DNA of 64,000 nt, from the NCBI GenBank assembly GCA_014728525.1, contig WJLJ01000083.1:295-64294 (forward strand). The letters run 5' to 3'. Below, piece after piece: positions 22,286-26,474 of this stretch (positions are counted from its first letter, which is position 1; every line of letters begins with the position of its first letter). The position numbers and the translations under genes are program-made. The stretch comes from Candidatus Babelota bacterium (GTDB taxonomy: Bacteria; Babelota; Babeliae; Babelales; UASB340). Under the pieces are notes generated by a model. That model ran no database searches and was not told the origin of the DNA. It was given only the letters and a program-made list of their open reading frames with translations.

Positions 22286-23695
22286 TTACTTTTTAAGTAA
22301 ACCTTTTGTTAAAGCATATGCCTTACAAATTTGAATATATCCTAGTGTACCAAACATCTGACTATTTGACTCTAAGCTTTTAAATCTCTTAATCAAATCT
22401 TCTACCGTATTTATACCCCGAGTTTTTAATATTCCAATAGTATCTTGACTTGTAATAATTCTTTTTCTCTCAAATATACTAATATCATCATCTAGCTTAT
22501 ATTCTATTTCTGGCTTTTTAACTATCTTAATCTGCTTACCCTTTTTTTCAACTTTTGGTCCCTTTTTTTTTGCAGCATCAATTTTTCTTTTAATATCTCC
22601 TTTCGATTCTTTTTTATAAAACAAAATATAAGCATCAAATCCATTCTTTTGTGTTTCCCCTAAAGCTTTTTTTAAACTCATAGGCCCAGATACAATACTA
22701 TCATTGTAAATATAAAATTGATTATTTTGTTTTATTATTGAAATATAATGACCGGCATTAATAGTCGCACCGCTATGAAGAATTATACTTTCTAAAGAAT
22801 AAAACATTTTCTTTTCTGGATCATAAATAAATTCATCAATTTCAAAATCTTTAGATATATTAATTTTTTCACCTACGGGTGGATTTGTTGTAAAATTCAT
22901 TTTAAATATTTTTAACTGAATAATAAGCGTTTCCGGAGTTTTTGAAACAATCTTTTTTTTAGTTAACTTTTCAACTTCTTTAGAGCTTTCGTCCCATTTT
23001 GCTTCTATAGCTTCATCTGTGAAAAAATTATTTAATAATTCTTTTACAGATGAACCCAAAAGTTTATCTAAATAATCTTTTACATTTAAAGACAAAATAT
23101 TTAATATTTCTTTAGCGCTCGGTCTAGTTTCCTTGTCCTTATCCTTCTGTTTTCGACTAAGTTCCGTTTCAATCTCTATATAAAAAGAATCATCTCCAAA
23201 CTTTATAATTGGTGCTAAATAAATATTTTTTTTCTTTTGTTTAATATAAATTGGATTATTCCATTTATCATAAATCACCTTTCCTTTTATATTAATTTTT
23301 CTACCATTAGAAATAATATAGGATTCTAAATCACTATTTATTGGACTTATAAAAAATTGAATATTACCTTTTTCATCCTTAATAATATTACCTGATTCAT
23401 CTACAATTACATTTAAACTAAGAATGCTATTTAAAAATTCTTGTGCATCTTGCTGTGTATATATTCCTTCATTATTAAAAATAATATTTAAAAGTTCTTT
23501 ATTAGTTTCACCTATTTTAATATCTCCTTTTAAATTATATAATCTTTGAAATAGACCAAAAAAATTAAAAATTCCAGAGGGAAAATCTTTATTTCGAGAT
23601 AAACATTGAATCACAGAGTTTGCATAACAAGTAGCCCCTTCATTATAAAGTCCCGCATTTATTTTATTCTTGGAATTTCTAGATGTCTTTCTTTT
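22286..23695 (-). CDS. Eukaryote-like ubiquitin-specific protease (USP/UCH, peptidase C19). The open frame extends to 23695, but the first usable start is GTG at 23614, downstream of the catalytic Cys.
   Basis: The Cys box NAGLYNEGATCYANSVIQCL is encoded at 23659..23600 (Cys codon 23627..23629). The His box reads HSGATINAGHYISIIKQNNQFYIYNDSIVS...YILFYKK (His codon 22748..22750). See findings. Confidence 0.75.
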   Translation of the reverse strand, partial: KRKTSRNSKNKINAGLYNEGATCYANSVIQCLSRNKDFPSGIFNFFGLFQRLYNLKGDIKIGETNKELLNIIFNNEGIYTQQDAQEFLNSILSLNVIVDESGNIIKDEKGNIQFFISPINSDLESYIISNGRKINIKGKVIYDKWNNPIYIKQKKKNIYLAPIIKFGDDSFYIEIETELSRKQKDKDKETRPSAKEILNILSLNVKDYLDKLLGSSVKELLNNFFTDEAIEAKWDESSKEVEKLTKKKIVSKTPETLIIQLKIFKMNFTTNPPVGEKINISKDFEIDEFIYDPEKKMFYSLESIILHSGATINAGHYISIIKQNNQFYIYNDSIVSGPMSLKKALGETQKNGFDAYILFYKKESKGDIKRKIDAAKKKGPKVEKKGKQIKIVKKPEIEYKLDDDISIFERKRIITSQDTIGILKTRGINTVEDLIKRFKSLESNSQMFGTLGYIQICKAYALTKGLLKK

Positions 23696-25116
23696 TTATT
23701 AATTTTTATTTCTATCTGCTCTTCTCTTTTAACTTCAAGCTTCCAATCTTTTCCGGTTTTTTTGAAAAAACCACTTACTTTTTCTTTTAAATTGCTAAAA
23801 TATTTAGCAATTTCTTTGAGTCTATTTCTTCGCTTTATTTGTTTTTGTCTTTCTTCTTTTAATTTTTCTGTTTCTTCTTCTTCCGGAACACAAACTTTTT
23901 TGAAATTAATTTTATCATTTTTTATTTCAACTTCTATAAATCCTGCGTATTGATATTTTTTATATTGATATGAAATAACTTGTCCAATATCAAAATTTTT
24001 ATCAATAAATTTTTTTAAAAGTATTCCACACTCAGTCTTTGCATCAACCGCAGGACCACCATGCTCATGTCCGGATAAAAAGAAAGATAGACCTTTTGCA
24101 GCTAACATTTCTGCTGCTTTTTCATACCAAATACGATACTGCTTCCCCCTCTTTCTTTCATATTTTACAGGATTCTTTTTTCCAACTTTAAACAAACCTT
24201 CTTTATAAATAATACCGGACCATTGATAAGGATTTTCAGAATCTGAATATTCACTTATTAAAATTGTTCTATCATCTCTTAATTTATCAAATTTATTTAT
24301 AAATTCATTATCAAATTTCCAATTATCTTTTTTTTCCTTTATTATTTTAAACCCACCATGAGCTAAAAGCCCCTTTTTAATTATTTTTTTATCTTTTTTA
24401 AACTTAACATAATTAAACTTAACATAACAAGCAATAGGAAGGCACTTAAAAAGTTGATCTTTAAAAGTCCCTTTAACATTATCTCTAAATTGTTTCCTAG
24501 TATAATTTTTTTTAATCAATTCTTTTCTGAAAAAACCATATTTAGAACTTTGAGCTTGAGATACGGATTCGTGATTTCCTGCTAGAATATACAAAGATTC
24601 CGGATTTAAAATTTTTAACATCATTAATGTTATCCAAATATCTAATCCAAACCATTCTCTATCTGTTAAATCTCCTAAAAATATTATCTTAAAATCTTTG
24701 TCTATTTTGCCATTTTTATCTATTATTTTTTTATATTCTAGATATTTTAATATTTCATACAAATTAGACATATACCCGTGCAAATCACCTATTACAATAA
24801 GCTTTTCGTTTTTATCAATAACTAATTTTCTATAAAATTTATAAGATCCATTTAAAATATCATCAACTTTTTTTTTGCTAAAATTTTTTTTTATTTCTTT
24901 TTTATTAATAGAATAAAAATTAGAAGCTAACACCAAAAAATTATTTTTAATAAACTTTCTAGCTTTTTTATCCTTACTTATATTATTAAACTTTTTATAT
25001 TTTTCTATTATTTCTTTTTTAGATATTTCTTTTTTAGATTCCATAGCATTTAAAAAAGTACCTTGAATAAATAGAAATAAAAATAAAATAAAAGATTTTT
25101 TTTTATTGTTAATCAT
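23659..25116 (-). CDS. Secreted PPP-family Ser/Thr protein phosphatase-like metallophosphatase with a K/E-rich C-terminal extension
   Basis: Signal peptide. Motifs VIGDLHG, GDLTDRE, GNHE, AHGG and SGHEHG appear in canonical PPP order. Confidence 0.8.
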   Translation of the reverse strand: MINNKKKSFILFLFLFIQGTFLNAMESKKEISKKEIIEKYKKFNNISKDKKARKFIKNNFLVLASNFYSINKKEIKKNFSKKKVDDILNGSYKFYRKLVIDKNEKLIVIGDLHGYMSNLYEILKYLEYKKIIDKNGKIDKDFKIIFLGDLTDREWFGLDIWITLMMLKILNPESLYILAGNHESVSQAQSSKYGFFRKELIKKNYTRKQFRDNVKGTFKDQLFKCLPIACYVKFNYVKFKKDKKIIKKGLLAHGGFKIIKEKKDNWKFDNEFINKFDKLRDDRTILISEYSDSENPYQWSGIIYKEGLFKVGKKNPVKYERKRGKQYRIWYEKAAEMLAAKGLSFFLSGHEHGGPAVDAKTECGILLKKFIDKNFDIGQVISYQYKKYQYAGFIEVEIKNDKINFKKVCVPEEEETEKLKEERQKQIKRRNRLKEIAKYFSNLKEKVSGFFKKTGKDWKLEVKREEQIEIKINKKERHLEIPRIK

Positions 25117-25199
25117 AAAAACTCCTTTTTTTCTTTAATTTTTTAAAGAATAAAGGGGTTAACAATTAGATTGCAATAATTAAAAAATAAAGTTTAAAA

Positions 25200-26474
25200 T
25201 CATTTAAAATATTCAAATTCTTTTTGTATATCCTCAAGCTTTTTTATTGTATACTTTTTACTAAGCTTACCAATATTTGATTCTTTTCTATAAAACAAAA
25301 TATAAGGATCAAACTCTTTTGTTCGCTCTAAAGCATTATCCAAACTCATAGGTTCAGATACTTTTTCATTATTATAAATATAAAATTTATCATCTTGTTT
25401 TATTATAGCAATATAACTACCGGATACTTTTTTTTCTCCCAAGTGAAGAACCAATCCAATTAACGAATGACGTAAATCATTTTTACGATCATAAAGATAT
25501 TCATCTAGCTCTATCTTACAATTCTTATCCTTGATCAGAGTTGCAGTAGATTCATCAAAATAAAATCTGTTTAAAAATAGAATTAATGTTTTGGGGCTTT
25601 TTTTAACAGTTCCTTTTGATATAATTTTTTCAGACAATAATTCTTTTATAGATTTAGAAGTGTTATGAAAAACAACTTTTTGATACCCTTTATTTCCCAA
25701 AATTTTAAAAAAAGGATTAAATATATCAAGTTGCAACGCAAATTTATAATCAAAGGGAATTTTGCTTTTCTTAAATTTTATGTAAAAAGAAGAATCTTTA
25801 TTTTTTAAAAGCCCATCTTTTTTGCATTTATTAAATAATTTATTTAAAAATTCAACTACATCCGGTTCTTTTTCTTCCTTTAGAAGTTCATCTAAAATAT
25901 TTAATTCCTCTTTAAATAAATAAATAGGTTCACTAGAATCCTTTAAACGAGTAAATAAATTTTTAAAAATTGGAAAGCCACTTTTTGATAAACATTGTAA
26001 TACAGCATTTACACCACAATATTTTTCTTCATTATAAATACCAGCATTCATAGGCTTGTTTTTTTTTCTTTTTATAGCTTTTTCAATTTTTCTCATTCTT
26101 TTATTTTTTCTATTGAAAAATCGAAATTTACGTTTTTTAGGTTCTTTTTGTTCTTCCTTTTTAACTTCTTTAGTCTTTTCTTTAGCTTCAGTTTTTACTT
26201 TAGTTTCTTCAAATTTTATTTCTTTTTTAATTTTTTCTTCAATTTTATCAGCTTTTTTTAATTCTTTTTTAACTTTTAAATAAGTATCACGAGCAGCAAA
26301 TAAGCTCTCAGTACCTAACCAATCTAAAGCATCAAGAGCATTAAATTTAGCTAATTCTTCTACCAATTCCATATCTTTTGAAGAATAATCACTTTTTTTG
26401 GTCATAGGCTTTGTAATACCAAAAGCCAATATTGATAAGATAGAAACAATAAATATAATTTTTTTATTTTTCAT
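25200..26474 (-). CDS. USP/C19-like protein with signal/TM, K/E-rich coiled linker and a variant His box (GSY instead of GHY)
   Basis: Cys box: NAGIYNEEKYCGVNAVLQCL. His-box region: HLGEKKVSGSYIAIIKQDDKFYIYNNEKVS...YILFYRKE. Paralogue of 22286..23695. Confidence 0.75.
   Translation of the reverse strand: MKNKKIIFIVSILSILAFGITKPMTKKSDYSSKDMELVEELAKFNALDALDWLGTESLFAARDTYLKVKKELKKADKIEEKIKKEIKFEETKVKTEAKEKTKEVKKEEQKEPKKRKFRFFNRKNKRMRKIEKAIKRKKNKPMNAGIYNEEKYCGVNAVLQCLSKSGFPIFKNLFTRLKDSSEPIYLFKEELNILDELLKEEKEPDVVEFLNKLFNKCKKDGLLKNKDSSFYIKFKKSKIPFDYKFALQLDIFNPFFKILGNKGYQKVVFHNTSKSIKELLSEKIISKGTVKKSPKTLILFLNRFYFDESTATLIKDKNCKIELDEYLYDRKNDLRHSLIGLVLHLGEKKVSGSYIAIIKQDDKFYIYNNEKVSEPMSLDNALERTKEFDPYILFYRKESNIGKLSKKYTIKKLEDIQKEFEYFK

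Follow-up and report, generated by a model that had tools for sequence, protein, structure and literature searches.

What are two ubiquitin-specific proteases (USPs) and a Ser/Thr phosphatase of eukaryotic type doing side by side in a bacterial genome, wedged between two housekeeping genes? Our study addressed this question in a 64-kb stretch of contig WJLJ01000083.1 (the window, meaning the whole of the DNA that was analysed), where the open reading frame (ORF) list holds three consecutive minus-strand ORFs at 22286..23614, 23659..25116 and 25200..26474, here called USP1, the phosphatase and USP2. The answer that we favour, with some reservation, is that we are dealing with an effector island of variable content, which occupies a fixed slot between the cytidylate kinase (cmk) and PIN-PhoH genes, and that its eukaryote-type enzymes are most likely exported to act on a protist host. 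A host-manipulation module had been proposed from the letters alone (the sequence-only reading), and host manipulation remains the best reading because of the C19 and PPP identity of the proteins, the protist-associated phylum, the signal-peptide-like N-termini and type II secretion. The notion of a module, however, had to be loosened, as there is no fixed trio and the slots in relatives may hold just a USP, just a phosphatase or some other combination. The genes and their boundaries are these:

20788..22242, plus strand: PIN-PhoH gene, conserved island boundary (Pfam and synteny)
22286..23662, minus strand, stop codon included: USP1, 458 amino acids (aa) when read from ATA, GF385_03895 = P0004 (Pfam UCH, model)
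23659..25116, minus strand: PPP-family Ser/Thr phosphatase, 485 aa, GF385_03900 = P0207 (Pfam, PDB sequence matches, model)
25200..26474, minus strand: USP2, 424 aa, public entry P0059, with a signal-peptide-like N-terminus, a Lys/Glu (K/E)-rich linker and a compact USP domain (Pfam UCH)
26645..27304, minus strand: cmk gene, conserved island boundary (Pfam and synteny)

Pfam matches and coordinates agree with the order USP, PPP phosphatase, USP on the minus strand that had been read from the sequence. Both USPs pass the curated cut-off of the Pfam UCH profile (PF00443, 23.9 bits), USP1 with 74.9 bits (E 1e-20, scored on 22286..23614) and USP2 with 49.1 bits (E 7e-13), and are thereby placed in family C19 of clan CA; the phosphatase ORF scored 61.5 bits against Metallophos (E 1.9e-16). 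The two USPs were correctly seen as paralogues, with 41% identity across the half of the domain that carries the His box (E 6e-25). To call them two C19 proteases is right as to family, but it passes over the replacement of the catalytic His of USP2 by Ser and the lack of a canonical start, a Shine–Dalgarno motif and a signal peptide in USP1. The GC content of the island (0.23-0.26) is in line with that of the window (27%). The threonyl-tRNA synthetase (ThrRS) near the island is 79-84% identical to those of three metagenome-assembled genomes (MAGs) of candidate division TM6 (Dependentiae), and the NCBI entries for USP1 and the phosphatase are filed under 'Candidatus Dependentiae bacterium'; judged by these matches, the source genome is a Candidatus Dependentiae (TM6) MAG. 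Contig look-ups by exact sequence for the phosphatase, USP2, cmk and P0004 returned 0 contigs.

The sequence and predicted structure of USP1 are those of a full-size USP in which the Cys/His/Asp triad and the ubiquitin-tail channel are intact. Its parts were delimited as follows:

22607..23662, minus strand: catalytic domain, aa 1-352 (Pfam UCH, AlphaFold2 (AF2) model, Foldseek, USP12 alignment)
22481..22606, minus strand: K-rich linker beginning KGDIKRKIDAAKKKGPKVEKKGKQIKIVKKPE, predicted to be disordered (pLDDT <50 at residues 377-404)
22289..22480, minus strand: C-terminal three-helix domain (helices 405-414, 420-432 and 438-457), resembling the helix-hairpin-helix (HhH) of the RpoA alpha C-terminal domain (alphaCTD)

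The Cys box, NAGLYNEGATCYANSVIQCL, lies in frame upstream of the GTG at 23614 with which the listed ORF begins. That ORF exists at 22286..23614 as reported, but the coding sequence of USP1 really extends to at least 23662, and when it is read from ATA the protein covers the Pfam UCH profile from the Cys box onward. The triad codons are TGT at 23627-23629 (Cys), CAT at 22748-22750 (His) and GAT at 22700-22702 (Asp); the oxyanion Asn stands 5 residues before the catalytic Cys (YNEGATCYANS), the His box reads GHY with its aromatic gatekeeper, and YNDSIV supplies Asp as the third residue. The motifs that hold the ubiquitin tail are canonical (QQDAQEFL, GHY and YILFY) in a residue-by-residue alignment with USP12. 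The AF2 model (pLDDT 73, pTM 0.71) recovered the USP fold, as the sequence-only reading had predicted: Foldseek matched it with probability 1.0 to USP35, USP46, USP12, USP21, USP2, Ubp8 and USP7 (E 6e-18 to 5e-15, TMt about 0.6-0.72, 368-411 columns), a fold call that refers to alignment of the core as a whole. Sequence matches of USP1 in the PDB were likewise USP12, USP46, USP2 and USP21.

The C-terminus of USP1 was compared by means of a three-segment profile (the USP1 C-terminus, the C-terminus of the USP of related locus L001 and the N-terminus of P0005), which matched several RpoA alphaCTD chains, best of all 8gzg_A at 262-314 (E 2.2e-5). The P0005 N-terminus on its own reached 19.4 bits against Pfam PF03118, below the threshold of 23.8, and an HhH-like segment was recognized by eye in P0070 and P0085 of locus L011 as well. 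These matches suggest a domain resembling the HhH domain of the RNA polymerase alpha CTD, and its joining to a eukaryote-type deubiquitinase may point to DNA- or chromatin-associated targets. A nuclear-localization-like character of the adjoining K-rich linker is speculation.

The middle gene encodes the most conventional of the three enzymes:

25045..25116, minus strand: signal-peptide-like N-terminus MINNKKKSFILFLFLFIQGTFLNA, with 3 K/R and then an h-region of mean Kyte–Doolittle value 2.25
23887..24840, minus strand: catalytic core, aa 93-410, with motifs GDLHG, GDLTDR, GNHE, HGG, RG and GHEH
23662..23886, minus strand: K/E-rich C-terminal tail, aa 411-485, with a long helix at 417-454 in the model

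A strong Shine–Dalgarno motif (aggag) precedes the gene, and an LNA motif in the N-terminus looks, by inspection, like a signal-peptidase site. The PPP signatures are GDLHG (110-114), GDLTDRE (148-154, with E for the last G) and GNHE (180-183). In an alignment of 70 sequences D111, H113, D149, D152, N181, H182, H253, G255 and H350 were invariant and R153 and R323 nearly so; the departures from the PPP consensus are SG for SD after W299 and S348 for R. By this alignment the metal- and phosphate-binding residues are all intact. PDB sequence matches were PP5, calcineurin A and PP1 (E about 3e-8), all of them eukaryotic PPPs. The AF2 model (pLDDT 75.8, pTM 0.76) bore out the predicted PPP fold, the best 50 Foldseek matches in the PDB all being calcineurin A, PP1, PP5 or PP2A (E 2e-14 to 2e-12, about 355 columns), and in the model the fold is that of a eukaryote-type PPP, nearer to eukaryotic PPPs than to lambda/ApaH-type enzymes. 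The family is frequent in Babeliales/Dependentiae as proteins of 450-550 aa with an N-terminal signal peptide; more distant relatives by sequence are archaeal and eukaryotic PPPs. The 75-aa tail has no counterpart in the slot orthologues of loci L002-L004, and similar tails occur in the distant members P0002 and P0003. It is truly coding: over 85 codons its frame contains 0 stops, while the other two contain 8 and 9. A second Metallophos protein of the window, encoded at 2413..3807 on the plus strand and consisting of N-terminal pentapeptide repeats and a Metallophos domain, was considered as a relative of the island phosphatase and ruled out (BLASTP E 0.19).

USP2 belongs to the C19 family by descent and is predicted, from its sequence, to be non-catalytic:

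26418..26474, minus strand: N-terminal signal peptide or membrane anchor MKNKKIIFIVSILSILAFG, with 3 K/R and a 12-aa window of mean Kyte–Doolittle value 3.11
25278..26051, minus strand: catalytic-type domain, aa 142-399, with the Cys box MNAGIYNEEKYCGVNAVLQCL present (alignments)
25416..25418, minus strand: Ser353 (AGT) at the catalytic His position, GSY for GHY (alignment)

The gene follows a strong Shine–Dalgarno motif (ggagg), and about 120 aa of K/E-rich linker separate the N-terminus from the domain; the K/E-rich stretches described earlier for the phosphatase and the distal USP are thus present in both. The Cys and the oxyanion Asn are kept (YNEEKYCGVNA) and the region of the third residue reads YNNEKV. 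The loss of the catalytic His is what leads to the prediction that USP2 is non-catalytic and probably inactive, and it is not a single-base sequencing error because AGT differs from the CAT of USP1 at two nucleotides. In the alignment the domain is about 90 residues shorter than that of USP1; mapped through the USP1 model, the missing residues would correspond to the beta-strand region on the fingers side.

The view of the region as a variable island rests on seven genomes with the cmk-PhoH slot, namely the window and six related genomes (loci listed below). The order LysRS, RecJ, cmk, slot, PhoH (reversed), ThrRS is conserved, and the content of the slot varies:

L001: one USP
L002, L003 and L008: one phosphatase each
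L004 / L005: a phosphatase and three USP-like genes, one with a ubiquitin-interacting-motif (UIM)-like motif (sub-threshold)
L011: a USP in which both Cys and His are replaced, plus an intact USP, plus a third USP-like gene that the contig end truncates

Because the slot holds such differing mixes of USP and PPP genes, we regard it as a variable effector island rather than a fixed three-gene module. Between the window phosphatase and the slot phosphatases identity is only 24-28%, as against about 80% for the neighbouring ThrRS; by this comparison, gene turnover and divergence are far quicker in the island than in the housekeeping genes on either side, a pattern to be expected of genes that interact with a host. 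A presumably dead USP paired with an intact one is found both in the window and in L011, where the tandem pair (2829-4076 and 4322-5728, both on the plus strand) lies downstream of cmk past a gap of about 0.8 kb. The first member of that pair (P0085) has Cys replaced by Tyr, His replaced by Arg and a C-terminal HhH-like segment, and the second is intact with an N-terminal HhH-like segment.

Several further genes were noted in and around the slots. L004 encodes a secreted-type USP-like protein of 388 aa (5720-6886, minus strand) with UIM-like motifs DEDLEMAIRMSLEE (PF02809, E 0.005, sub-threshold) and a secreted-type minimal USP-like protein of 300 aa (7084-7986, plus strand) whose Cys box is accompanied by a His box reading NHY. 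The contig of L009, probably from a Dependentiae genome, has a gene homologous to the island phosphatase, set among other neighbours, and its positions 1-667 (plus strand) encode a ubiquitin-ligase-like protein of RBR/IBR type (RNF216-like Rcat), a further ubiquitin-system gene of eukaryotic type. In the window itself, a plus-strand ORF of 269 aa at 27399-28208, between RecJ and cmk, has a signal-peptide-like N-terminus and a strong Shine–Dalgarno motif and gave no Pfam or PADLOC match; as RecJ and cmk are directly adjacent in L001-L004, this ORF is a second lineage-specific insertion by the island.

How such enzymes might reach a host was judged from their N-termini, using simple Kyte–Doolittle hydrophobicity and inspection. 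A charged n-region with a hydrophobic h-region was found in 11 of the 12 island proteins from six genomes, and in the ORF at 27399, the exception being USP1. The N-terminal signal or transmembrane segments ascribed to the phosphatase and the distal USP were found where expected, each as a K-rich n-region and then at least 12 hydrophobic residues (mean values 2.25 and 3.11). Type II secretion is the only secretion system reported for Babela (PMC4378268) and is core to TM6 (PMC4776705); in Chromulinavorax 44% of coding sequences have signal peptides (PMC6561590), and TssM of Burkholderia is a USP that is exported via type II secretion (PMC10719079). The Dependentiae lineage is described as host-dependent and protist-associated (PMC4776705, PMC4378268). 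On our reading the island enzymes would be exported to the protist host in two steps, first by Sec and next by the type II system of the phylum; there the phosphatase would strip Ser/Thr phosphates from host proteins, USP1 would release ubiquitin, or a modifier that ends in GlyGly, from targets that belong to the host or are associated with the bacterium, and USP2 would be a non-catalytic ubiquitin binder or a decaying copy.

The start of USP1 requires separate treatment, as the gene meets the phosphatase gene in an unusual way:

23659..23662, minus strand: junction ATAA, in which ATA, the first codon of USP1 according to NCBI, overlaps the TAA stop of the phosphatase
23659..23697, minus strand: stretch open in both the phosphatase and the USP1 frame, with an A6 run at 23692-23697 and an A4 run at 23662-23665

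The NCBI annotation (P0004, 458 aa, 'MNAGLY...') begins at the ATA at 23662-23660, which aligns with Met142 of USP2. There is no ATG, GTG or TTG between the Cys box and the in-frame stops at 23696-23701. From ATA the frame has 0 stops in 458 codons, compared with 45 and 71 in the other frames; it is shifted by -1 relative to the phosphatase frame, and a single A inserted in the A6 or the A4 run would fuse the two ORFs. No Shine–Dalgarno motif precedes either the ATA or the GTG, although motifs of GGAG type are common before genes of the window, including the phosphatase and USP2, and the hydrophobicity check found no signal peptide (charged n-region and hydrophobic stretch) at the N-terminus of USP1.

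With G at 23660 the junction would read ATGA, so that an ATG start would share bases with a TGA stop, the standard arrangement for translational coupling. An ATGA overlap without a Shine–Dalgarno motif joins the genes for a PBP transpeptidase and a HAD-family hydrolase at 11045-11048 (minus strand), from which we conclude that this genome uses translational coupling. The simplest account of the USP1 start, judged from the sequence, is accordingly a decayed coupling site of this kind: USP1 would once have been translationally coupled to the phosphatase through an ATGA start/stop overlap, one G-to-A transition would have turned ATG into ATA, and USP1 would now be made at a low level from ATA by reinitiation, or would just have been lost. 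The loss of one AATG unit from a hypothetical TAAATGAATG would also give the present sequence and is another possible origin of the junction. Directly after the phosphatase stop (TAAATG) and in the phosphatase frame, an ATG opens an ORF of 15 codons, MRDFIMKGLLVMQTL followed by a stop, at 23611-23658 (minus strand), which runs across the Cys box of USP1 in another frame. Upstream of that box the USP1 frame is full of stops, and the idea that it is a relic of a USP2-like linker there (KRKSKWFFQKNRK compared with KRKFRFFNRKNK) was rejected: the DNA alignment scored 36 against 32±4 for shuffles (maximum 51), no better than chance, and the match of 'KNK' before I/M-NAG between the USP1 upstream frame and USP2 requires a gap. 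No relatives with the same phosphatase/USP1 junction were found in GTDB species genomes, JGI metagenomes or viral contigs. Searches with USP peptide patterns gave 0 hits in GTDB species genomes, 0 in viral contigs and only two weak loci in JGI metagenomes.

Several points weigh against an exported host-manipulating island. The N-terminal segments could stay uncleaved as membrane anchors, in which case the enzymes would remain in the periplasm. No type II secretion system was found in the 64-kb window, and its role is taken from studies of other Dependentiae. As the one island protein that has no signal peptide, USP1 would be without an evident export route if translated from ATA; moreover, its start has no Shine–Dalgarno motif and ATA is a poor initiator codon. 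USP2 has no general base. Finally, a functional partnership of phosphatase and USP is not supported, because the two occur together in only two of the seven slot-bearing genomes.

Four other explanations were weighed against the exported island. We consider it rather unlikely that the phosphatase and USP1 form, or very recently formed, one secreted bifunctional protein of about 943 aa with a signal peptide, PPP domain, K/E helix, USP domain and alphaCTD-like domain in succession, the one-nucleotide difference in frame being an assembly or consensus error, a frameshift bypassed by slippage (-1 ribosomal or transcriptional) or a fresh mutation. Such a protein would supply a signal peptide to the sole island protein without one, and it agrees with the Cys box lying in frame upstream of any canonical start, the USP1 frame being exactly -1 to that of the phosphatase, both frames being open over 23659-23697 so that one extra A in A6 or A4 joins them, and USP1 having no Shine–Dalgarno motif; the coding tail of the phosphatase also abuts the USP domain much as the K/E linker precedes that of USP2. 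However, K/E-rich C-terminal tails are found in family members without a USP (P0002 and P0003), NCBI annotates two separate genes, and no phosphatase-USP fusion was seen among the nine long top matches of an exhaustive profile search or in any related locus. A word-indexed search with the fused 943-aa query returned only 3 weak phosphatase matches, the candidates probably having been swamped by K/E-rich words. The particular version in which -1 slippage, ribosomal or transcriptional, on the A-runs within 23662-23697 yields a single Sec-exported phosphatase-USP1 effector is quite unlikely. The A6G run is out of register for X_XXY_YYZ (the zero frame is AAU_AAA_AAA_GAA), so that only single P-site slippage on A_AAA before GAA or UAA is possible at the junction; the RNA fold of 23570-23700 (-14.9 kcal/mol) is weaker than that of shuffles (z = +1.28), with no downstream stimulatory structure, and there is no internal Shine–Dalgarno-like stimulator and no GGAG upstream. 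Were it true, the locus would make the phosphatase alone and, in a set ratio, a phosphatase-deubiquitinase fusion, a recoding-controlled effector of two activities without a described counterpart.

Decay of the island would leave a locus that now supplies only the phosphatase, USP1 being a fresh start-less pseudogene and USP2 dead, which we regard as improbable though well short of far-fetched. The missing start codon, Shine–Dalgarno motif and signal peptide of USP1 and the His-to-Ser change of USP2 speak for it, as do the birth and death of USPs in relatives, including P0085 of L011 with Cys and His replaced, and their complete loss from the slot in several genomes. Against this, USP1 has 458 stop-free codons in a 27% GC genome with 45 and 71 stops in the other frames, and any inactivation must be very recent because the triad and the canonical motifs are retained; USP2 is a long intact ORF with a strong Shine–Dalgarno motif and a signal-peptide-like N-terminus, which suggests a retained non-catalytic function. 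That the enzymes work for the bacterium itself is very unlikely, whether in its periplasm or envelope as a protease and a phosphatase or within a bacterial system of ubiquitin-like conjugation or of defence. Their hydrophobic N-termini could be membrane anchors and PPP phosphatases occur in free-living archaea and bacteria too, but no E1, E2, Ubl or JAB genes lie near the island and there were no PADLOC matches; to our knowledge, bacterial ubiquitin-like systems use JAB/MPN-type peptidases, not USPs. The canonical ubiquitin-tail motifs of USP1, the sub-threshold UIM-like motif in the 388-aa protein of L004 and the host dependence of the lineage (PMC4776705, PMC4378268) also argue against self-use. 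That eukaryotic or viral DNA was mis-assembled into a bacterial contig is barely credible: for both enzyme types the nearest named relatives are from eukaryotes and similar USPs occur in giant viruses, yet homologous genes occupy the same slot in six independent assemblies, the GC content of 0.23-0.26 fits the contig, bacterial Shine–Dalgarno motifs stand before the phosphatase and USP2, introns are absent and the signal-peptide-like N-termini are of bacterial type.

An exported island of this kind has precedents. The nearest is Babela massiliensis of the same phylum, for which three secreted C19 hydrolases were reported in 2015 (Pagnier et al., PMC4378268). According to that paper, these enzymes are predicted to be secreted, with type II as the sole route, and were interpreted as interfering with host ubiquitin signalling, as is proposed here; they are known from genome annotation only and are likened to the window USPs by published description. 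In the passages of the paper that were searched, nothing is said of an inactive paralogue, of a domain like the alphaCTD, of a PPP phosphatase next door or of an anomalous start codon. The earlier statement that USP enzymes are rare and host-associated in bacteria fits an obligately protist-associated phylum, but for this lineage their rarity was overstated in view of these three hydrolases. In Simkania negevensis, deubiquitinase activity was shown experimentally for SnUSP1-3 (Boll et al. 2023, PMC10643670), which, like the window USPs, are of USP type, come from an amoeba-associated intracellular bacterium and have hydrophobic N-termini and complete USP domains with canonical active-site and gatekeeper residues, a likeness stated at family level; they differ in belonging to Chlamydiota, in being large proteins with all triads intact and in not being clustered with a phosphatase. 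Burkholderia TssM (Hermanns et al. 2023, PMC10719079) is likewise a USP-class effector that leaves through Sec and then type II and has an accessory non-catalytic domain. It is 'fingerless', with a Littlefinger loop, whereas USP1 is full-size; USP1 is not TssM-like because its 352-aa core aligns over about 370 columns with canonical USP cores (TMt about 0.7). For the phosphatase the comparison, made by description, is with Legionella WipA/WipB (PMC5572681), eukaryote-type PPP domains that act as translocated effectors of an amoeba-associated bacterium; those are delivered by a type IV system, whereas Sec and type II secretion are proposed here, and the window enzyme belongs to a Dependentiae-wide family.

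The best matches of USP1, by sequence and by structure, are the eukaryotic USP12/USP46, USP2, USP21 and USP35, with which it shares the Cys box GLxNxGxTCYxNSxxQCL, QQDAxEFL, GHY and YILFY. Structural-alignment identity is 17-21%, and USP1 differs from these enzymes in that its fingers lack Zn-ribbon cysteines, that it carries an added alphaCTD-like domain of bacterial type and that its gene lies in an operon-like bacterial context. Its nearest named relatives by sequence are eukaryotic USPs (25-35% identity), and transfer of USPs from a eukaryote to a bacterium is plausible. The USPs of giant viruses (Pithovirus, Mimivirus and Klosneuvirinae) have the same fold (Foldseek E 1e-16 to 1e-13, TMt up to 0.81) and share the protist-host niche, with 14-21% identity to USP1; no locus-level relatives were found in viral contigs. 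USPs of eukaryotes and of giant viruses stand at much the same distance, and these comparisons single out no donor lineage. Next after the window and Dependentiae proteins, the exhaustive profile search ranked vertebrate models of up to 3205 aa with up to 20 USP stretches (P0058, P0060-P0063 and P0073, from pocket gopher, fishes and cuckoo). These are low-quality models that merge tandem USP17/USP18-like arrays, and they were rejected as close relatives, their high rank arising only from the summation of scores.

Dependentiae are widespread, almost uncultured parasites of protists, whose handling of their hosts is known from genome inference only, and the cmk-PhoH slot offers a hot spot at which putatively exported enzymes of USP and PPP type appear to be gained, duplicated, killed and lost. 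Secreted C19 enzymes and USP effectors (Babela, Simkania and Burkholderia) and PPP effectors (Legionella) were known before, and an island of this kind has been described in the phylum. The pairing of an apparently dead USP with an intact one, the alphaCTD-like appendage, the hot spot itself and the way USP1 begins, with its catalytic cysteine accessible to translation only from a non-canonical start or through a frameshift, are modestly new. The locus adds to the few USP-class enzymes known from bacteria (TssM, Simkania SnUSP1-3 and the Babela C19 hydrolases) and overturns no current view.

Other parts of the window yielded minor observations. A 13-kb block at 46347-59303 contains seven large ORFs without a Pfam match at E<=1e-5, three on the minus strand (551, 443 and 1239 aa) and four on the plus strand (356, 315, 320 and 1014 aa). 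At 5450-7026 (minus strand) the LigD 3'-phosphoesterase and the LigD primase-polymerase are encoded by two separate adjacent ORFs, and no ligase domain was found among the window ORFs scanned. Furthermore, a BNR/Asp-box (sialidase-like) repeat protein is encoded among housekeeping genes at 14568-15812 (minus strand), adjoining a tyrosine recombinase (12812-13747) that is XerC/D-like by its domains.

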